A DNA stretch of 63,398 nt, counting the filler, from Globobulimina sp. (taxonomy: Eukaryota): assembly GCA_003354225.1 (NCBI GenBank). It is 45 parts of 45 records of this genome, joined end to end, with 100 filler letters (N's around TTAATTAATTAA, not from the genome) between each part and the next. Parts side by side here need not be neighbours in the genome. Positions count along the whole stretch, not along the records: positions 18,355 to 19,665 come from PIVH01018898.1; 44 more parts are not named here. The stretch is one strand, 5' to 3'. Of the stretch, positions 4,237 through 51,941 are shown in pieces. The notes beneath the pieces are model-generated. The model ran no database searches. It was not told the origin of the DNA and saw only the letters and a program-made list of their open reading frames with translations. Within the stretch, counting starts at the first letter, position 1. Every line of letters begins with the position of its first letter. A program made the position numbers and the translations under genes.

Positions 4237-5548
4237 GATGACGAATACGAAATATTCAATGATACTAAACGCATATTGAGACAGGGATATCTTTCAAAGA
4301 AATCCGCCTATTTAAAAATTCCAAGAAAGCGATGGATTGTATTACATGGAGTCAAATTATATTCATTCAAAGATAATGAGTGTCATCATCCGACAGAAAT
4401 ATTTGATCTGACAGAATATGATAAAATTTCCCATTCAGAACATTCAATTACTGCTAGTTTTAAACTGCAGTCATCATTATCTGCAAAATCACGAGAGTTT
4501 ATAGCATCGGATAGGAACGAAATGTATGAATGGATAAAGTTTATAACATATATTCAATGGACACACATTGCATTATCTGTCATTGCAAAACGAAGCAATT
4601 GTTGTGTTGTGAAAAAAATTAAATTGTATTTAAAATATGATCCATCACTGTTATTATTAGATATTATCAACTATATAATCACGCAAATTGAAGCTAAATA
4701 TTATCCACAAAAATTATGGCTTCGTAGAATCAGATCAGAGTCATTTACAGGCGAAACATATTCAAATCATAGTTGTGTACATCCAGATTCATTAAACGCA
4801 CCCATTACAAATTGGAAATATTCGGATATTCAAAAAAAAGGATTATATTTGATTTTTGATAATATATTTGTTCATAAAATATCAAATCTCAAAATATCCT
4901 GTCAATATATGCTCCGCGGCCAAGAGCACAGCAATACAAATAATCCATTACAATGCCCAGTTTATTATGATATGATACATTCACATGAATATAGTCCAGA
5001 TAATATCCGTCATTTGCATGAATATATACATTTTAAAAATGAACATTTTGAGAAACCATTGTGTAAAATGTCGCAAAATTGTGTTTTTTACAAGCGATTA
5101 GAACATGGTGAATATGGAATGTGTGATATTTATCATCTGAAATTATGGAAACATCCAGCACGGTCCGCCAGAGCTATTCGTATGCAACACAATATGCTGC
5201 AATTAGTGGTGCATTCGCATGGAAATAATGGTATTTATGCCTCATTTGCAATACAACCACGTATTTATGATTTAATCCGAGAAGTAATAAGAAATAAATA
5301 TAAGTCTGATTTGTTTTTTTCAAAATCTGATCGCAAAAATCGACATTATTCAATTTTGGATGCAGTTAATGATAAATATGATTGTTTTCGACATCAAAGC
5401 ATGAATAAACCGCTTAACAAAACTGAAATATTAGCTCTATTTTTATATACAAATTGTGAATGTGCTTATGACCTAAGTCAATGTCAAAGAAATGGAAATT
5501 ATAAAAAATGGGTGTTTTTTGATTATCATTTATTTCAAGCTATATACA
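4237..5548 (+). CDS. PH-domain protein with a lineage-specific C-terminal region, possibly leading into an ADP-ribosyltransferase-like domain; truncated
   Basis: PH motif 'RQGYLSKKS..KRWIVL..LYSFK..EWIKFI'; ends 'ALFLYT..YDL..QR.G.Y.KW..FD..L..AI'. Confidence 0.7.
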
Positions 5549-17118: not shown

Positions 17119-18254
17119 ATGCCAAGAAAAAACGGAGCAGCCTTAAAGCAACAAATATTATTCAATCAAAACACAAACCAAAGACGTCGACGGGACAAAA
17201 AATTAAATCTAAATCAACAAAATGATGCAATGATAACTGTAACACCAATAATTCCAGAAAATGAATCAATTCGAGAAGCACTAATCGCCGATGATATAAT
17301 TAATGATCAAAATGAATCTCTAATTGCAGGTACGGACACGCACCAAAATGGAACAGCAGAGGAATTCAAAGAAGAGCAGAAAAGTGAGGATGAAGCAATA
17401 CATGTTCCAGATCCAGAATTGCTGGCAACCATTACACAAAAAGAACAGTCAACATTCAGTTGTGTGGATTATGAAACTGACAACGATTCAAATTACAACT
17501 TGGTTTTCGGTGATTTACAAAAATGGAGAATCCATAAGTTATCTCAACATAATAAAAACATGGAAACTGGATTCGAAGATTTATGGTTTCTCAAAAACCA
17601 ACAAAATAGAAAACAAAGAAGAAAAGTATTTGTTGAAGGAAAAGTTCACAGAGTCTCTAACATTAATGCTGACGATGAGACATTTGAAGCGAAATTGCAT
17701 TTATTTTTATCTTGGTTGGTAACCAAAGATGAATATTTATTATGTGTCGAAGAGGAAGAAAAATATGAATCATTGCCGGATTACTCTGCGACAACGACCA
17801 TTGATAAAGACAACAAAATGTGGCATCCAATTATACATATTCCCAACTTCGAACATAGCAAACACGAATTTGTGGATAATGGAAACGGGGTTAAATTCAA
17901 AATCGTTTCTTATAAAAAGTTTGCTGGCTTTGGTACTGGACTCGATACAAAATTAAATATCGACCCACAATGCATTAAAAAAGATTGCTTTGATATTAAA
18001 TCAGCGAAATTCATACGATGCAAAGTGGAAATATCTGGATTATTTTACAGTGAATTTGAACTGAAAAACTTTCCGTTTGACATACAAAGTTTAGGTGTAA
18101 CCATTATGGAAAGGAGTGGAAAGGCTACTTTTTTGCCGGCATTTCGTGAAAGGAAACAGTTTATGAATGTGGATAGTTTGTGTTTTGAAGTGAAAGAATG
18201 GGATTTGGAGGCAACTATGTTCGAAATGGTAGATGCCGATCCAAGTTATGATAC
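17119..18254 (+). CDS. Cys-less (Pro-loop) pentameric ligand-gated ion channel, ligand-binding-domain half; truncated
   Basis: 'V.RVSNI..DETFEA.L.L.LSW', 'W.P.I.IPN', 'FELKNFPFDIQ.L', 'EW.L'. Confidence 0.78.
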
Positions 18255-18415
18255 NNNNNNNNNNNNNNNNNNNNNNNNNNNNNNNNNNNNNNNNNNNNTT
18301 AATTAATTAANNNNNNNNNNNNNNNNNNNNNNNNNNNNNNNNNNNNNNNNNNNNTTTTTCTAGAAATAGTTTGTATACTTTGTATTAAAAAAAATCTTAG
18401 TGCCAGGATAAAAAT

Positions 18416-19330
18416 TTATTTTTCGTCATTTTCTTTAACTTCGTCGCTTTTTTTATTGACAAACATTTTCGTACCAAGAGACGACTGTAATTCATGCTTT
18501 TTGTCCAACAATTTGGTCATAATTTCTTTTCCTTTCTTACCACCAACTTTTTGCGCATTTGTTTGCAATGAGTTATTATATCCTCTCCTCCGTTTATAAT
18601 GGCCATGGCCAAACAACTTGGAATCTTTTCTTTTATTCCACATCGAAATATGCGCAAATTGAATTTCGCAGATATGCCTTGGATAAATTTCATTGATGGG
18701 CTCAATCAATAAATGAATATCTGCCCATCCATGATGTGTTGGTGCAGAATATCTATTTTTTATTCTAACAATTTGAAAACCAAACATATTTTTATTATGT
18801 TTCAATAATAACTCCAAAATGCAATATAAATCATTGAAATTTTCATGAACAATGGCACCGCGACAAACATCCAATAATTTTCTCCAATTTCCATCATAAT
18901 CTGCGTCAACTTTTTGTTTTGCTCGATCGAATTTTTTAAGTGGAGCTGGATGAATGTCATAATTATTGACAATTTTATTCGCAATTTTTTCTTCGAAATG
19001 CTTTATTAAATTATCCATAAATTCTTTTAATGGTTTCTCAAGTTTTTGTGCTGCGGATAATAATTTGTTCCAATCGTTTTGATTTTCGATTTGCAATATA
19101 GGTGAAGTGCGATTTACTTTTTCGTCTGCAAACTTATCACATAATTTACAACATTTATCAAAATAACCATCCTTTGTAATTTTATTTAAAGTGAACCAAT
19201 ATGGTGTTTCAGTGTCAATTTTCTGTTCGCATTTATCAACAGATTTGTTTATGGTGTCAACAATTGGTGATAATACCGCTTGCGTCTTATCGCCAAGTTT
19301 ATTTGCTGTGCTTTTGACTGATTCTAACAT
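18416..19330 (-). CDS. Stand-alone RelA/SpoT-like nucleotidyltransferase (small alarmone synthetase-like)
   Basis: Motifs in RSH order: LKKFDRAKQK, LLDVCRG, IKNRY..PTHHGWADIH, HICEIQF; complete intronless ORF. Confidence 0.8.
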   Translation of the reverse strand: MLESVKSTANKLGDKTQAVLSPIVDTINKSVDKCEQKIDTETPYWFTLNKITKDGYFDKCCKLCDKFADEKVNRTSPILQIENQNDWNKLLSAAQKLEKPLKEFMDNLIKHFEEKIANKIVNNYDIHPAPLKKFDRAKQKVDADYDGNWRKLLDVCRGAIVHENFNDLYCILELLLKHNKNMFGFQIVRIKNRYSAPTHHGWADIHLLIEPINEIYPRHICEIQFAHISMWNKRKDSKLFGHGHYKRRRGYNNSLQTNAQKVGGKKGKEIMTKLLDKKHELQSSLGTKMFVNKKSDEVKENDEK

Positions 19331-20054
19331 GGAATAGGGCTTTCCGATTAAATTAGTACTTGGAAATTTTGAAAACTTTTCGAAGACAAAAATTAATTGC
19401 AGCCAGAAACTGAGCACACAGACCACGTATTACACACACACGAAAAAAAAATCAGCAAAAAAAATCAGCACATTCATAAAAACTACACAAACGAAAAAAA
19501 AAATGTATTTATTTACATAATAAAAATATTAAAAAATGTAAAACGAAACAAAAAAGTCGAAGAAGATTTAATTTAATTTAATTTATTGTGGTGTAATAAG
19601 TAAGCAATTCTTTGAAGCAATTCCCCGTTTTGGATGATGATATGTGGAATGATGTAAATTCCATCNNNNNNNNNNNNNNNNNNNNNNNNNNNNNNNNNNN
19701 NNNNNNNNNTTAATTAATTAANNNNNNNNNNNNNNNNNNNNNNNNNNNNNNNNNNNNNNNNNNNNCCGATCTTTTTGATACTGCGAACCAAAAAAGTTTT
19801 GCTTGAGCTTAATGTCCTCGATCGTTTGTGTCTCGTTGGATGGATCATTAATAGAGAGAATTGATAGATGGATGGATGTTTGTATTTCAATTTTTTCCCA
19901 TAAACTCAATCAAAAATCCGAAAACATATATTAGTTTCTATTATTATTATGATACCATATTCCCTGTATCGTCATTGTTAGGAAATAAAGCATTGTATCC
20001 ATGTTCAACTTTTTAGTTATATTTTTATCTAAAGCCTCCGTCCATTTCTCTCCA

Positions 20055-20897
20055 TTAATTCAGTCGCATCACCCTCAAAACAAAAACATTAAACCACACA
20101 GCACAGAATATAAAAAATGCAAAAGCTGACAATGTCATCTCCACGTTTGTATACACAATTAAACCCGCACCTGATGTTACGCATAATGATGGCCCCAAAT
20201 TAAGAATTATTCGAAGAAAGTACGCCATTTTATAAATTGCCCACATATCTGGTCTCTCAGTCATTATTATTAATGCACCAAACATATTGGTCCAATGCAT
20301 ACTAATTAATTGCACCAATTGTTTTGCTGAAATTGGGATTGCACTATTCATGCACCGAATGGATCCATCATTTGTAAAAAAAAATACCAATCTTGTTTCA
20401 ATTATCGCTTCTTTTTCCCCAGTCCCGCAGCCTAATTTTTTCACTTTAAATGATAAAAACGGAAAATAATACCTTTTTGTGCTGTTGTGCATAGTGTGGA
20501 TACGTAACATCCCTCTGACCATCGCTGGCATGGACGCGTTCCAATGTGTTATCTGTTGAAAAGAAACAGGTGTTTTCATTAAATAAAATTGTTTCAAAAT
20601 ATCTTTTGCTGTTATTCGATGACTATTGGAATTGTTGTTTGATTTAGCAATTGATTTGTTAAGTATTGATTTGTAATTTTTTCTGATTGGTTCTAAAATA
20701 ATTTCATCAATGCAAGGTTTGATTTGCCGAGAGGTCATTGATAAATGGATTAAATCTCGACTCGATTTGCCTTTTGCACTGAGAAATGGTGCAATATGAT
20801 TTTTGATTAACTCTGGTGGCAATTGATCGAGACTTAAACATAAATGAATCATAGTTGCGCAACAACACAATGCCCAAATGTATGAAATTAATTTCAT
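20055..20897 (-). CDS. Signal-peptide + F-box-like motif + two C-terminal TM helices
   Basis: Hydrophobic N-terminus, then 'LDQLPPELIKNHIAPFL..DLIHLSMTSRQ'. Confidence 0.6.
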   Translation of the reverse strand: MKLISYIWALCCCATMIHLCLSLDQLPPELIKNHIAPFLSAKGKSSRDLIHLSMTSRQIKPCIDEIILEPIRKNYKSILNKSIAKSNNNSNSHRITAKDILKQFYLMKTPVSFQQITHWNASMPAMVRGMLRIHTMHNSTKRYYFPFLSFKVKKLGCGTGEKEAIIETRLVFFFTNDGSIRCMNSAIPISAKQLVQLISMHWTNMFGALIIMTERPDMWAIYKMAYFLRIILNLGPSLCVTSGAGLIVYTNVEMTLSAFAFFIFCAVWFNVFVLRVMRLN

Positions 20898-22426: not shown

Positions 22427-22588
22427 ATGACAATATCCATAGACGAGTAATAAACTTCTTTTTCTATTTGATTCGGTCTGATATCTANNNNNNNNNNNNN
22501 NNNNNNNNNNNNNNNNNNNNNNNNNNNNNNNTTAATTAATTAANNNNNNNNNNNNNNNNNNNNNNNNNNNNNNNNNNNNNNNNNNNNG

Positions 22589-23898
22589 ACAGTTGGTTCC
22601 ACCACATTAATAAATATGTTATACAGCATTTCCAATCTATGGAATGGGTACAACGTAACAACGACGTATGACTCTCAAACTTATTCTTTTGAGTGCACAT
22701 TTTGCACCACATTCAGCCAAACCATCAATAATATTACGAATCAAATTGACGACCAAACTGGCCCAATATTTGAATCCTTAAATTCCACAGTTTCAGCCAT
22801 TGGGTCCACGCTATTAAATGTCGAAGGCGACATTATTGAGCAAATAGATGGCTTTATTGAGCAAATTGGTGATGTGCATGATGAGGTTATGTCGGCGGAG
22901 GACACGGTGCTTTCCGCTCGGCCAGCCATTGAAGATTATAATAATAAGCGCGAGATTGGCTACAATATCATATTTGCCATTCCATTATTACCGATCCTAT
23001 TTATTTTATTTGGTGGCATCTTAAAGAAACCGGGATGTTTTACTTTATCTTATATTTGTTTGTGGTTTTCTTGCACTGTGATGTGGTTATTGTTAATGTT
23101 GCATTTGCCAATCGCAGTTTTATTAAATGATACCTGCCATTTTCTAGATGTTTTGGACGCAAATGTGACGCAAACATTTAATAATACCATGGGCCAAATA
23201 TTCGAAGCATGTCTAACCAATGAAAAATTAACAGAAACATTGGGAGTTGGCGCCGCATTAAATTTTACAAATGCAATTCAATTCCCTTCGTTAGGAAATA
23301 TTACGCAAGAATTTGAGTTTTCAGATCTATTGAATTTTCAAAGTGATGCCTTATCTACGAATTTCTCCACTTTTTATGCCAATGGTGATGCAGCTTTAGT
23401 GGTGGTTAATAATTTAACATTAAGTTCGCCTGCAAATGGCTTTGGTTGCTGCAAATATTCGAGGACTAACATTTCCTCATTGAATTCCTCCGAATATTAT
23501 GCATTTAACAGCACATTGCAAGTTACGTTGGAAAATTTAAAAAATATATTAATGGCAGAATCTGGCTCAATTTCAGCATTCAATGAGACGATTTACAAAA
23601 TTCGGAATAATTTATCATCCGTTTCGAATCAGGTGATTGTGATTGAGACAAATGTGCAGCAGTTGGCCAATAATGTGGAGAATGCGTCGGTTTTACTAAA
23701 TCCGTTATTTAATGATGTGGATGATATGATTGATACCGCCCGATGTGGTTTTATTGGCGATGCCTATATCGATACAAAGGCAGTTATGTGTAGTGCTGTG
23801 TTGGGGGCCTTGTCTCGCATCGTAGTGTCCATGTTTGTCATTGCAGTGTTGTCCTTATTCAGTTGCATTTGGAGTGTCAAATTGGTGCGAAAGGTGGA
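22589..23898 (+). CDS. Prominin/tweety-like membrane glycoprotein fragment
   Basis: Two TM helices then 'LLNDTC', a large loop rich in N-glycosylation sites, 'CGFI..Y..K..MC' and a final TM. Confidence 0.6.
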
Positions 23899-35286: not shown

Positions 35287-36597
35287 TCGACAAGATTGCA
35301 TCGGAAGAGAAAGGGTCCAAAGTTATGCATTCCATGACACTTTCGGTGGTGGAGGGCCCACTGGGGACGGAAGACAAAAATTTGAAATTTCCTGAAATTT
35401 CTCCAAACGGCATTCAGGAGGAAAACTTTTCATCCCTGGATAAGTTGTTAAGAGTAACAGCTTACATTCTTCGTATCTTGGAAAGAGTAAAACGAAGGAA
35501 TGTGCCCAGCAGTAAATCATTGACTTCGGAGGAATTGAGTAGAGCCAAGAAATTGTGGATTGTCTATACTGAAAGGAAATACTATGCTGAAGTGATCGCA
35601 GCAATGGAACGGGAAAAGAGGAATAATTTGAAGGACCAGTTGAATCTGGAAATGGATGATGGTGTCATTAGGTGTAAAGGCAGATATGATCATGCGGAGT
35701 TACCAGAAGCGGCGAGGAAACCTATCCTTCTGCCACGGAAATCATACTTCACCAGATTGATCATTGAAGGCATTCATAAAACAATAATGCACTCGGGCAT
35801 TTCACAAACGTTGGCTCATCTTCGATATGAATTCTGGGTGCCACAAGGTCGAGCGGTGGTACAAAATATCATATTTCACTGCAACGTATGCAGACGGATG
35901 GAAGGTGGTTCATATAAAATGCCAAATATGCCATCATGGCCGAGACAACGGGTATCGGAGTCAACACCATTCAAATATACTGGATTGGATTACTTCGGAC
36001 CTCTGTATATCAAGGAAGGAAGGAACGGGGAAACCAAGAAAGTTTGGGTTTGCCTCTTTACATGTTTATCAGTCCGAGCCGTCCACTTGGAGCTCGTGCA
36101 AGACATGACAACGGAACAATTTTTGCTTTGTCTACGTCGATTTATCGCCCGAAGGGGGACACCGGAACAAATCACTTCGGACAATGCTACACAATTCAAG
36201 GTGTCAAAGGGAATCTTGGATAAAGTATGGAATGTTATACGAAGCGACGAAGTGCAAAGTTACGTGGCAAAGCACAGAATTAAATGGAACTTTATTGTGC
36301 AGTTGGCCCCATGGATGGGAGGATTCTATGAACGGTTAGTTGGGGTAGTAAAACGGTCCCCTAAAAATGTTATTATGACCTCTGAACAGTTGGAAACTGT
36401 ATTGATTGAAGCAGAGGCAGTGGTCAACTCTCATCCTTTGGTACATGTGGATGGGGATATTAATTCAAGTATCACATTATCGCCATCACATTTTCTCACA
36501 CTGAACCCTTACACAGGAATTCCGGAGTGTAAGGAAGATCTTGATCCTGAGTTTCGACTGGATGGTACCATCAGTAAAGCTCAAGAGTTATTGGACA
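35287..36597 (+). mobile_element. BEL/Pao LTR retrotransposon pol fragment (zinc-binding HHCC + DDE integrase)
   Basis: 'H..MHSG..C.VC', 'TGLDYFGP', 'RAVHLELV', 'SDNATQF', 'APWMGGFYERLV'. Confidence 0.95.
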
Positions 36598-42341: not shown

Positions 42342-43652
42342 TTGGTATGATAATATCAATGAATTTGGCATGAAACAGCAAGTTGAAAATAATCAGTATT
42401 CAATGAATGTAAATATGCGGCTATCAAATTATGATTCTGTTATTAAAGAGACACTGAAAATACTAAATAAAATAAAACCAATTCCAGCCACCAAAAATTT
42501 AGTGATGCATTTATTTGAAACACAGAATATTTTAATTTATTTGAAAGTGATGCAATGTAATTGTAACATATTACGAATGGAAAATAAATTAAAATGGGAG
42601 ACTCATTCTATTTTAATCGAACAGATCAACGTTAAACAAGAAAATTATAAAAATCAAATTAAATATTTTCAAAATGCAATTCAAAAATCACATAATGAGT
42701 TAATGATTGCTACGCATTTTAAAAAACCAAATAAAAATAAAAAATGTGCTGGTTTATGTAGTAAATCGTTAGATTTTACATATAAATTAATACGATATTC
42801 GTTTAAAAGAGCAATACTCGATTTATGTGCAATTATTATTCTCATATTAATATTTTGTACGGTTTATAGAATTATTCCATTAGTTCGTGATACAGTGTAT
42901 TTGTTTAAATTTAAAACAAAATACAAAGAAAATCGAAACATTGTCATCGGTCCATCATTACGTTATGGCTTTCGACAAATTATTGAGAAACATATCAAAG
43001 GATTTGTGATTGATTTATCATTGCTTTGCCAATTATTATTTTGGTCCCTGATAATATTAATTAGCTTACTCCGAATCTTCGATTATATCTCGCATTTATT
43101 CACAGGCGCCATAAAAAGAGGGAAACCGTCTTTAACCTTAGCGATGGCGGTCGAAATTGCCAGATATGAGACAGGTATGATTTGGGAGGATATTTCCTCT
43201 GTATTTTATTTAATGTTTATGCCAACAACATATAAATATGCCATCTCCGCACTTATATTTGGCACTTTTTTACCTTCCGCGGCCTTTTTAGAAATGTTTG
43301 CTTTGTTATGTTCATGTTTACCGAGGCGAGTCCGGCAAATATTAAGTATTTTAATTTGGTTTGGTTTATTTATCACAATATTATATATTGCTGGTTCAGA
43401 TTATTCCACTCAAACTATAGAAACCTATAAATTTGCAATTTTTGCATTTATTACATTAGCGGTTATTGCTGGATTCTTTATTGCTTTATTTTTATGCGTA
43501 AAATGCCGCAATTTTAAAGATTATAAAGAAGAAATATTCCATAGGGAAAGTCGTATTGTTACACGTGTTTGTTCCACTTGTGATAATTTATTAAGTTTAT
43601 TATCAGTAAATTCAAATAATAAAATATGCTTTTTCTGTGATGCTAATGTGAA
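42342..43652 (+). CDS. Large multi-pass membrane protein fragment, family unrecognised
   Basis: Open across the whole contig with at least six hydrophobic helices. Confidence 0.6.
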
Positions 43653-47985: not shown

Positions 47986-48080
47986 CGATGATCAACAAGG
48001 CTGAAAGGCCGGTCATGTATGTCGGCGGCGGGGTAATCTCCAGCGAGTGCTCAGAGCTTGTCAAAAAGATGGCGGAGAAG
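47986..48080 (+). other. ilvB: Bacterial acetolactate synthase large subunit (central domain) fragment fused to dynein
   Basis: 'INKAERPVMYVGGGVISSECSELVKKMAEK' matches the TPP-enzyme central domain; higher GC. Confidence 0.75.
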
Positions 48081-49296
48081 AAACGGATTGAAGATACGGC
48101 CAAAGCCACTGCGGATAAAATGATAGCCGCTACAAATTTAATTGGTTCGTTAGGCGGCGAGAAAGATCGCTGGATTCAGGACGCCGCCAATTTTAAAAAT
48201 GAAAAATGTAAATTGGTGGGCGACGCTGCCATTGCATGCGCCTTTGTATCTTATTGCGGTCCATTTAACCAACAATATCGAAAGAAGATATTAACGCAAT
48301 ATTTTTACGACAATATTAAAAAAATCGGCAATATTTCGGTGACTGAGAACTTAAATATTAATAAATTCCTATGCGATGACAGTATCATTGCGGAGTGGAA
48401 CTCGCAAACCTTGCCCAAGGACGAGCTGTCCATTCAAAATGGCATATTGACCACTTCTGCCACGCGTTGGCCACTTCTGATCGACCCGCAAGGACAGGCC
48501 GCGCAATGGTTGAAGCATAGGGAACATTTGAATTTCCCCTATTTTGGCACCACCTCCATATCGAATCCGCGGCTGCGGGACCAACTAAAATATGCGATGC
48601 AGGAAGGCAAGACTTTGTTGGTGGAAGGCGTGGAGGAGGAATTGGACCCAATGTTGGATCCCGTTTTGGAGAAAAACTTATTCAAACAAGGCAAAACTTA
48701 TTATGTCAAGCTAGGTGACGAGGACGCGGAATTTGACATGAAATTTAAAATGTTTTTTATCACAAAACTGTCGAATCCGCATTTTACGCCGGAGCTGTCG
48801 GCCAAAACTACAGTGGTTGATTTTGCAGTGACGCAGAAAGGATTAGAGGACCAGTTATTGTCTGTTGTCATCAATCAGGAACAGCGGTCGTTGGAAGAGC
48901 AGAGAATCAAATTGATTGAAGAAGTAAATAATAATACGATATCGCTACTCAATTTGGATAAGCAATTATTACAGAAATTGTCTGAAACGGAAGGCGATTT
49001 GTTGGAAGATATTGAATTAATAAATGTGTTGAGCGAGACGAAGAAGTCTGCGTTGGAGGTCAAGACAAAAATTGAATCCTCCAAACAGACGGAAACAATG
49101 ATTAACAAAAAAAGAGAGCAATACAGAACTGTGGCGACACGAGGCTCCATTTTGTATTTTGTGATGGTGGACATGGCTTTGGTAAACTGGATGTATCAAA
49201 CTTCATTGTCTCAGTTTTTAACCTGGTTTCAATATTCCTTATCTGCCTCGAAAGAGTCGAATTTAGTCAATCAGCGCGTGAATAATATAATATCTT
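48075..49296 (+). CDS. Axonemal dynein heavy chain fragment (stalk end + AAA5), outer-arm gamma-like
   Basis: 'LGGEKDRW', 'FVSYCGPFNQ', 'RWPLLIDPQGQ', 'GLEDQLL', 'ATRGSILYF'. Confidence 0.93.
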
Positions 49297-50807: not shown

Positions 50808-51941
50808 CATTTGATCCAATCCATAGTCCTCTTCCCATCCCCAATCACTCCTCGCTTCCGAATCATCAATGGACTGCGGCCACGTCGCAGCAATACCTTG
50901 CCTGAAATCTGGCTGATATTGAATCTCAAACTCAGGCATTTTCCTCTTGATAGACTCGGCTTGCTCCGCAGGCGCAAAACTGACACCGGTCACATTATAC
51001 ACTCTGCTCTTTAACTGCTTATTGTCCGCCTCCATCAACATCATAGTCGACTTTATGCAGTCCGGCATGTACATCATTGGCAATTTCGTTTCTGCCGACA
51101 AGAAGCATTTATAACTCTTCTTTTTGATGGCTTCGTGATATATCTCGACGGCATAGTCGGTGGTCCCGCCGCCCGGCATCGCTTTGGATGATATAATTCC
51201 GGGATAGCGCAATGAGCGAAAGTCGACACCATACCGTTGATAGTAATATTCGCCCAACAACTCCGAGTATACCTTAGTTATTCCATAAATGGTTCTGGGT
51301 CTTTGCACCGTTAACTGCGGCGTTAATTTGCTGGGTGTACTTTCGCCAAATGCTGCGATCGAGGAAGGTATATAGATTCGCAATTGATTCAAGCGCGCCA
51401 CTTCCAACGTATTCTCCACGCCCATATTGTTGATCTTGATTGCCAATTTTGGGTCTTTTTCACCCACAGCGGAGAGCAACGCCGCCATATGGAATATCCA
51501 ATCGATTTGATACTCCATACTGACGCGGGCAATGCTGTTATAATCGCACGTATCTAAGAACACAAAGGGCCCGTTTGAGGCCATGCTGGTTGGCAATTTG
51601 ACATCGGACGCGATGACGTTTTCAATGCCGTAGCGTTTGCGTAAATATGGCACCAATTCTGTACCAATCTGGCCCGAGGCGCCGGTTATTAATACTCGCG
51701 GTTTGGAGTCTGGGTCGAAATAGGCGTCGTGGCGATGGCCAGTTTGCATGTAGCCACCACCGAATCGCTTCCATTTCTGTTGGGATGAAATGTAGGCAGT
51801 GCGTGTCTGGGACTTTATTGGTGTTGTTTTAGGGTTTGGTTTGGTTGTGGTTATGGCTTTTGTTTTTGATGTTGGTGCAATGGTCGAAACCATTCGGATT
51901 GAATGTATGATATATTTGCCTGTATTTGGATTTTGGAACAT
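50808..51941 (-). CDS. TDH: L-threonine 3-dehydrogenase (SDR type), likely mitochondrial
   Basis: 'LITGASGQIG', 'LLSAVGE', 'YGITK', 'PGGGTTDYAV', 'WPQSIDDS'. Confidence 0.95.

Follow-up and report, generated by a model that had tools for sequence, protein, structure and literature searches.

The question raised by this locus is whether a heterotrophic protist carries an alarmone-type nucleotide synthetase of its own. The window, meaning the whole stretch of 63,398 nt from Globobulimina sp. (assembly GCA_003354225.1) that was analysed, is composed of 45 contigs of 1310-1312 bp apiece, ordered by length and spaced by N/TTAATTAATTAA/N, and is not a single locus. On one of these contigs, PIVH01018898.1, an initial annotation made from the sequence alone had proposed a stand-alone gene resembling the RelA/SpoT homologue (RSH) synthetases at positions 18416-19330, and its product is called P0001 here. 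We consider it probable that the gene is a genuine one from the nucleus of a microbial eukaryote, likeliest a foraminifer or a close relative, and that it encodes a soluble single-domain enzyme with the fold of the RSH synthetases.

Reading frame, active site and predicted fold

The coding sequence of P0001 (18416..19330; all features of the gene and its flanks are given on the minus strand) is complete and free of introns, with 304 aa followed by a TAA stop, and the product is predicted to be soluble with an isoelectric point of 9.2. The ATG at 19330 is the first one after an in-frame stop located 34 codons upstream. The two closest homologues, P0002 and P0003, are collinear with P0001 from the N-terminus with no intron-like break, and contigs from other sequencing runs aligned to the gene stretch showed no joints. 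Nothing, therefore, points to an intron or a missing exon, and the complete intronless frame of about 304 aa that had been annotated was confirmed. A scan of P0001 for hydrophobic 19-mers gave none (maximum Kyte-Doolittle value 0.89), and no signal peptide, transmembrane segment, delivery or trafficking domain was detected. Searches against Pfam and NCBIfam at E<=10 returned no HD, TGS, ACT, EF-hand, NACHT or NB-ARC domain, no repeats and no other domain, in agreement with the annotated lack of HD, TGS and ACT. P0001 thus has the synthetase domain alone (304 aa, core 85-252), as is the case for the class of small alarmone synthetases (SAS).

The four RSH motifs were found in the order previously described, at aa 129-140, 152-160, 188-206 and 219-227. 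Residue conservation was counted over 175 domains (168 family proteins) in an alignment anchored by a hidden Markov model (HMM). Two smaller sets were used as well, A2, which consists of P0001 and 56 shorter phmmer matches (57 sequences), and A3, which holds the seven closest sequences including P0001. The putative donor-ATP phosphate-binding motif, APLKKFDRAKQK (aa 129-140; 18911..18946), carries K132, R136 and K140, kept in 155/175, 145/175 and 154/175 domains, respectively, and is aligned to APIKSRERAMQK of Tas1 (Apk1) from Pseudomonas aeruginosa (PDB 6ox6). The second motif, LLDVCRGAI (aa 152-160; 18851..18877), contains the candidate Mg2+-binding Asp, D154 (159/175), and an Arg at +3, R157 (156/175). 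D154 aligns with D87 of YwaC (DIAGVRI) and with Tas1 DLARNTII in HMMER residue alignments, and the D-x-x-R arrangement of P0001 is Tas1-like, as opposed to the D-x-x-G-x-R of the aligned YwaC DIAGVRI. The beta-strand and G-loop, VRIKNRYSAPTHHGWADIH (aa 188-206; 18713..18769), which would form the acceptor-base stacking loop, is aligned to VKVKDYIQTPKPNGYRSLH of YwaC and includes K191 (136/175), R193 (137/175), G201 (154/175) and D204 (157/175), with W202 in place of the usual Tyr. The last motif, HICEIQFAH (aa 219-227; 18650..18676), holds the predicted catalytic Glu, E222 (164/175), together with H219 (139/175) and Q224 (160/175). It is aligned to EIQ of YwaC and Tas1, and its CEIQ falls on AEIQ in the HMMER residue alignment. 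With Y245 (150/175) included, P0001 retains all 13 most conserved family positions, K132 through Y245.

The catalytic motif set is accordingly present in full, i.e., a basic donor-phosphate motif, a metal Asp, an aromatic residue in the G-loop and a Glu in E-x-Q. E222 is invariant in the A2 alignment, and A3 has 44 invariant columns, which include K132, R136, K140, D154, R157, K191-Y194, G201, W202, D204, H219, E222 and Q224. Where Q-I-R-T canonically follows the catalytic Glu, P0001 reads QFAH, and Tas1 likewise departs from this tail (EIQVN). The Trp in the G-loop had been taken as a hint of an altered substrate. This idea is not supported: position 202 is Y in 100/175, W in 58/175 and F in 3/175 domains, and all seven closest relatives (A3) have W, so that it is a trait of the family in which the aromatic side chain is retained. 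In FaRel2 the equivalent elements are a donor-triphosphate clamp (R64/K66/S70/K74/R77), the Mg2+-binding Asp D90 and a G-loop Tyr which stacks on the acceptor base (PMC11782079; this and the other papers on alarmone synthetases and immune receptors are cited from the available parts of their texts).

An AlphaFold2 (AF2) model of P0001 had a pLDDT of 88.5 and a pTM of 0.80. The top Foldseek matches of the model were all RSH, with RelP as the best (E 1e-7), and its alpha/beta nucleotidyltransferase core superposes on solved RSH synthetases. This RSH synthetase-like (SYNTH/toxSYNTH) core is placed at aa 85-252 (18575..19078), and nearly all of the top RSH structural rows begin at model residue 81-100, with few at 1-43. 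The core is preceded by an N-terminal extension (aa 1-84; 19079..19330), helical in the model and common to the closest relatives (TPYW.TLNKIT...Y..KC); P43, Y44, T47, L48, T52 and C60 are invariant in A3, and conservation of this part is seen among the nearest relatives only. A long C-terminal helix is predicted at aa 242-290 (18461..18607), from the conserved GH..YK segment to a clade-conserved G...FV motif, and some structural alignments with RelP, CapRel and Tas1 extend to model residues 291-301.

A resemblance was also noted by eye between the start of P0001 (approximately residues 8-20), ANKLGDKTQAV, and the C-terminal repeats NKIGDETKK.V of the Bolivina protein P0006. The stretch of this type in the two proteins may represent an amphipathic repeat through which they associate with membranes or lipids.

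Homology, phylogenetic placement and copies in other runs

A phmmer search with P0001 over 1.84 billion representative sequences gave 651 matches at E<=1e-3, of which 24 reached <=1e-10 and 5 reached <=1e-30; the matched part is centred on residues ~126-255. The Pfam family PF04607 (RelA_SpoT) was matched at E<=0.01 by 25/57 A2 sequences, the best at 4.3e-10. Against PDB, the A2 profile found Tas1 6ox6 (3.3e-18), YwaC/RelP (3.3e-12), further SAS, RelSeq (2e-6), RelA and the exported synthetase 8vx3 (1.4e-4), and the A3 profile alone found Tas1 at 1.7e-5. Tas1 was the top PDB sequence match for both profiles, and the closest affinity of P0001 among the solved structures is accordingly to this enzyme. 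The motifs described above fall on the best-conserved columns of a family of 651 members whose profile matches solved RSH synthetases, which is more than chance would give. The proposal of a stand-alone RelA/SpoT-like synthetase with an intact motif set is thereby supported by profiles, AF2 model, Foldseek and family columns, and structural matches to the RelA/SpoT fold, without which the idea was to be dropped, were obtained with the A2 and A3 profiles and with Foldseek. In the ESM Atlas the nearest clusters were eukaryote-mixed or bacteria-mixed, one of them with PF04607 in 34% of members, which we treat as a lead only. No PADLOC model matched P0001 or six of seven relatives, and one weak PDC-S33 match was recorded on P0012. 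A metagenome search with A3 gave 32 loci, mostly short.

The phylogenetic tree was built with FastTree on 162 of 175 domain rows (13 rows with <100 match columns were dropped) and midpoint rooted. P0001 grouped with P0002 and P0003 (support 0.947), and this group is nested in a clade of 20 sequences (support 0.99). Taxon names were assigned to 30 phmmer matches, looked up by exact sequence. Named relatives were five sequences of Bolivina argentea and one of Nonionella stella (a cluster mate), both from EukProt, three entries of a marine eukaryote transcript catalogue, one more distant sequence of the pelagophyte Aureoumbra and one MMETSP transcript; the rest were metagenome proteins. All six named foraminiferal sequences fall in the clade of 20, as do two of the transcript-catalogue entries; no sequence that could be tied to bacteria lies within it. 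This argues for a protist gene over a bacterial or a plastid one, and, as judged from these relatives, the gene most probably belongs to a foraminifer-type protist. The earlier placement of the gene in a heterotrophic protist is in line with this result, since P0001 groups with foraminiferal transcripts and not with bacteria or plastid RSH. Bacterial-looking relatives were found as well, among them P0019 (2115 aa, MuF-type) and P0024 (3127 aa, eCIS_core/calpain), the latter on a contig of 235 kb. A pattern scan of viral contigs for relatives of the clade gave 0/36 candidate stretches.

The clade is not uniform. TM-like (transmembrane-like) segments are present in P0002, P0004 and P0006, five members start with MG and have CC within 15 residues, and two start with MCC. 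Starts of these kinds are presumably membrane anchors of the acylation type (N-myristoylation, palmitoylation). In most relatives the G-loop strand and the catalytic strand are separated by an acidic insertion that is missing from P0001. The catalytic Glu is replaced in at least three paralogues of the clade, P0010, P0016 and P0018. At least one foraminifer has an expanded set of family members, as indicated by the five Bolivina sequences among the 30 matches looked up.

The gene stretch was present in six sequencing runs from three studies; none of the six is listed as RNA, although run X6 might be. In run X2, a contig of 1800 nt spans 18369-19297 with five listed differences, all synonymous, and diverges from the window sequence at 18369. 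For this piece 26 gap letters were reported, yet no indel was listed within it, and an Illumina-adapter-like loose end was seen at 19297. In run X6, a contig of 862 nt is ~95% identical to the gene with 42 differences; the listed 37 comprise 15 synonymous and 22 non-synonymous ones. Codon 191 (window 18760), the conserved Lys AAA of the IKNR strand, is a TAA stop in this contig, at a depth of ~4. This stop could be a sequencing error, or it could mark a paralogue or, in a related organism, a pseudogenised gene copy.

Proposed reaction, rival readings and known systems

If P0001 is active, it would act as a Mg2+-dependent pyrophosphokinase. K132, R136 and K140 would bind the donor ATP, D154 would hold Mg2+, W202 in the G-loop would provide stacking for the acceptor base, and E222 would drive the beta,gamma-pyrophosphate of ATP onto the 3'-OH of the acceptor. 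Our best guess, made by analogy, is that the acceptor is a free purine nucleotide, converted to (pp)pApp and/or (pp)pGpp; it is favoured because the closest characterised relative by sequence, Tas1/Apk1, is a (p)ppApp synthetase. The biological role may be speculated to be a stress or immune-type nucleotide signal, or a self-limitation by depletion of ATP. A wider picture is put forward tentatively, and we hold it to be rather unlikely as a whole. In it, a family of Tas1-like pyrophosphokinases has expanded specifically in the foraminiferal lineage, with soluble members such as P0001, members anchored by transmembrane segments or by N-terminal MG..CC motifs of the acylation type, and members that are catalytically dead; the active ones would make (pp)pApp/(pp)pGpp-type nucleotides in the cytoplasm of a heterotroph as a plastid-free alarmone-type stress, immune or cell-death signalling.

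Several results weigh against the main interpretation of P0001. P0001 had no match to PF04607 even at E<=10, let alone at the gathering threshold, so that the PF04607 check suggested in the initial annotation turned out positive for 25/57 aligned sequences and negative for the protein itself. By its sequence P0001 is a remote homologue of the PF04607 family, and it stands outside that family by Pfam's own criterion. Compared directly with PDB sequences, P0001 alone gave sub-significant matches (YwaC/RelP E 0.13, Tas1 E 0.15), and hhalign of A3 against a single canonical long RSH gave a probability of 3.8% (E 0.011), with the alignment in register. As the direct matches are weak, the assignment depends on transitivity through the family profile, as well as on a model derived from the same alignment. 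The replacement of Glu in P0010, P0016 and P0018 means that loss of catalysis occurs within the clade, and the non-synonymous excess and the stop in the X6 copy mean that constraint is not strong in every copy. The foraminiferal assignment depends on the identity of the relatives, and contaminants common to the Bolivina and Nonionella sets are conceivable. As to the acceptor, sequence cannot reveal the choice; a promiscuous exported synthetase, superposable on Tas1/Apk1, has a preference for guanylates (PMC12691689).

It is at this point that a different acceptor has to be considered. A tRNA 3'-CCA end, the acceptor of CapRel, FaRel2 and PhRel2, would also suit the same fold and the same chemistry, and P0001 would then be a translation-blocking toxin or an effector of abortive defence. 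We regard this as unlikely. A pseudoenzyme, a scaffold or a nucleotidyltransferase of another reaction, in a lineage-specific family that is partly degenerate, would agree with the loss of the catalytic Glu in at least 3/20 clade members, with the missing H-[IV]-x-E-[IVL]-Q string in 8/20 (some of these being fragments), with QFAH where Q-I-R-T is canonical, and with the many non-synonymous changes and the one stop of the X6 relative. Nevertheless, P0001 and its six nearest relatives retain all family-invariant residues (44 invariant A3 columns), and Tas1, which is an active enzyme, likewise lacks the IRT tail; a non-catalytic or differently catalytic protein is therefore given quite a small probability.

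There is also the explanation that the contig is foreign to the protist host and was co-assembled, its source being a bacterium, a giant virus or prey, or else an alga that is a symbiont or a kleptoplast donor. The contig of 1311 bp is unlinked, the family includes bacterial toxin-like modules (MuF-linked P0019 and eCIS_core-linked P0024), the size of P0022 agrees with a 500-aa frame at a match on the 448-kb, high-GC and bacterial-looking contig L002, and more distant relatives exist in algae such as Aureoumbra. Nonetheless, the clade of P0001 contains all six foraminiferal sequences and no sequence tied to bacteria, no relative was found in the scan of viral contigs (0/36), and HD, TGS, ACT and EF-hand of plastid RSH were not detected. 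Moreover, the flanks are A-rich with no ribosome-binding site read before the start, and the composition (contig GC 0.30; GC at third codon positions, GC3, of the frame 0.285) agrees with the other, eukaryotic contigs, inside the spread of all 44 of them (GC 0.28-0.44; GC3 0.17-0.55). A foreign source is thus very improbable in our view, and a gene of the protist itself is the reading we prefer.

Among the characterised systems, Tas1 resembles P0001 and its family in the Arg at +3 after the metal Asp and in the absence of an I-R-T tail, besides being the top sequence match. It differs in being the C-terminal domain of a type VI secreted effector with the immunity protein Tis1 (PMC11782079), whereas P0001, a stand-alone protein of 304 aa, lacks a delivery domain and has an N-terminal helical extension of its own, and the identity in structural alignment is 20%. 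No partner gene, Tis1-like or coding for an SAH (small alarmone hydrolase), is visible on the 1.3-kb contig. To RelQ/SAS1 and RelP/SAS2 (PDB 5ded, 6ewz, 6fgk) the identity is 15-18%; PF04607 misses P0001, and the Arg follows the metal Asp at +3, not +5. Distant members of the family occur within or at the end of giant proteins, as in bacterial polymorphic-toxin and exported synthetases (MuF, eCIS_core, LXG, signal peptide): in P0019 (2115 aa) Phage_Mu_F is combined with a synthetase domain at 1965-2089, and in P0024 eCIS_core with the domain and a calpain protease. P0001 has no such delivery domain, signal peptide or transmembrane segment. In plastid RSH1-4 and CRSH the synthetase is accompanied by HD and/or TGS, ACT or EF-hand; P0001 has none of these, and 304 aa leave no room for them.

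Eukaryotic RSH had been described as mainly plastid enzymes, a statement that proved to be incomplete. Synthetase-only RSH genes called 'divRel' were reported in 2011 from Aspergillus, Gibberella, Dictyostelium and diatoms, with a sporadic distribution and a proposed horizontal transfer from bacteria (PMC3153485), and 'FunRel' is a subfamily name in 10.1101/575399. P0001 is similar to divRel/FunRel in being a stand-alone synthetase-only RSH in eukaryotes outside plastid RSH1-4. The difference is that those were found with RSH HMMs while the clade of P0001 escapes PF04607, and Rhizaria and foraminifera are not mentioned in the available parts of these sources; the comparison is made by description only. 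It has also been proposed that a RelA_SpoT-type domain in a non-plastid eukaryotic setting serves immune or cell-death receptors directly as their enzymatic effector (PMC4986451). These RelA_SpoT effectors of fungal NOD-like receptors (NLR) are fused to NACHT or NB-ARC together with ANK, WD40 or TPR, and P0001 has no such fusion; a likeness is that three of the 57 A2 sequences carry TPR_10/TPR_12 repeats, the repeat type used by such receptors.

As non-plastid eukaryotic SAS genes and fungal NLR RelA_SpoT domains are already published (PMC3153485, PMC4986451, in their available parts), there is no conceptual surprise in P0001. What it most probably adds, as suggested by the sequence comparisons, is an extension of the known sporadic eukaryotic SAS distribution to Rhizaria, in the form of a lineage-expanded clade missed by standard models. 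A full-text literature search combining foraminifera or Rhizaria with ppGpp and alarmone terms found no paper; the taxon tables of the RSH census (10.1101/575399) lie outside such a search and could list rhizarian sequences. Should the enzyme be active, a major group of marine heterotrophic protists would make hyperphosphorylated nucleotides in its own cytoplasm, a chemistry characterised so far in bacteria, plastids and bacterial toxins. Expansion, varied membrane anchoring and loss of the Glu in some members together make a pattern that typifies gene families of signalling or immunity, not housekeeping enzymes. Surveys based on PF04607 undercount RSH-like genes of eukaryotes, as P0001 and the scanned relatives among P0002-P0007 were not flagged.

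The contig, its flanks and the remaining window

The contig bearing the gene (18355..19665, 1311 bp, GC 0.30, delimited from the spacer map with no strand assigned) is the entire genomic context of the gene. As 45 unrelated contigs are concatenated in the window, true context is limited to this one, and reading frames in the flanking window are uninformative on the neighbourhood. P0001 is encoded by the sole gene of the contig, whose ends lie 61 nt and 335 nt away from the coding sequence. The 3' flank (18355..18415) is 61 nt long and AT-rich. The 5' flank (19331..19665) is A-rich, with a 10-nt AC run (ACACACACAC) at 19432-19441 beside A runs of 8-10 nt. Of the A-rich flanks with a CA microsatellite in the initial annotation, the A-richness was borne out, while the 'microsatellite' comes down to the 10-nt AC run. 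The likeness of the flanks to host contigs is given no weight here, the contig being 1.3 kb long, the others unlinked and its composition just within their range. The absence of a ribosome-binding site, on the other hand, was agreed with, as our own reading of the flank gave no AGGAGG-like element 5-10 nt before the ATG. At the contig end (19587-19665, ~80 bp) the summed contig word depth rises from ~5 to 228-262 in run X1, where it is 40-50x that of the gene body, and up to 174-217 in run X2, and is high in run X6. This end is probably a dispersed high-copy repeat at which the assembly breaks.

In a tblastn search of the window P0001 matched only itself (next best E 0.30), the long-RSH query P0153 revealed no HD-like sequence in the whole window, and neither rRNA nor tRNA was found when searched for across it. 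Other contigs of the window encode eukaryotic domains according to Pfam, i.e., dynein heavy-chain AAA_9/stalk, FAT, PH and retroelement integrase. On the contigs before and after that of P0001, the frames 17119-18254 (plus strand; 378 aa, running off the contig end) and 20055-20897 (minus strand; 280 aa) had no Pfam match at E<=0.001. Several contigs are open frames from end to end, e.g., 1413-2724, 4237-5548, 22588-23898, 35287-36597, 42342-43652 and 47986-49296. A retroelement integrase is found at 35325-36597 (plus strand), with Integrase_H2C2 at 3e-8 and rve at 2e-6, the latter under the Pfam cut-off, on a contig with GC 0.43, above most. At 47988-49296 (plus strand) there is a fragment of dynein heavy chain (AAA_9 2.8e-79, microtubule (MT) stalk) whose best database match is 82% identical. 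Its named matches, at ~50-53%, are stramenopiles, oomycetes and one apicomplexan, several with axonemal-dynein names. The fragment is not diagnostic and was rejected as a taxonomic probe. The contig with the highest GC in the window (GC 0.444, GC3 0.545) carries an NAD-dependent epimerase/dehydratase frame at 50808-51941 (minus strand; 5.5e-28), and its source organism may differ from that of the AT-rich contigs.

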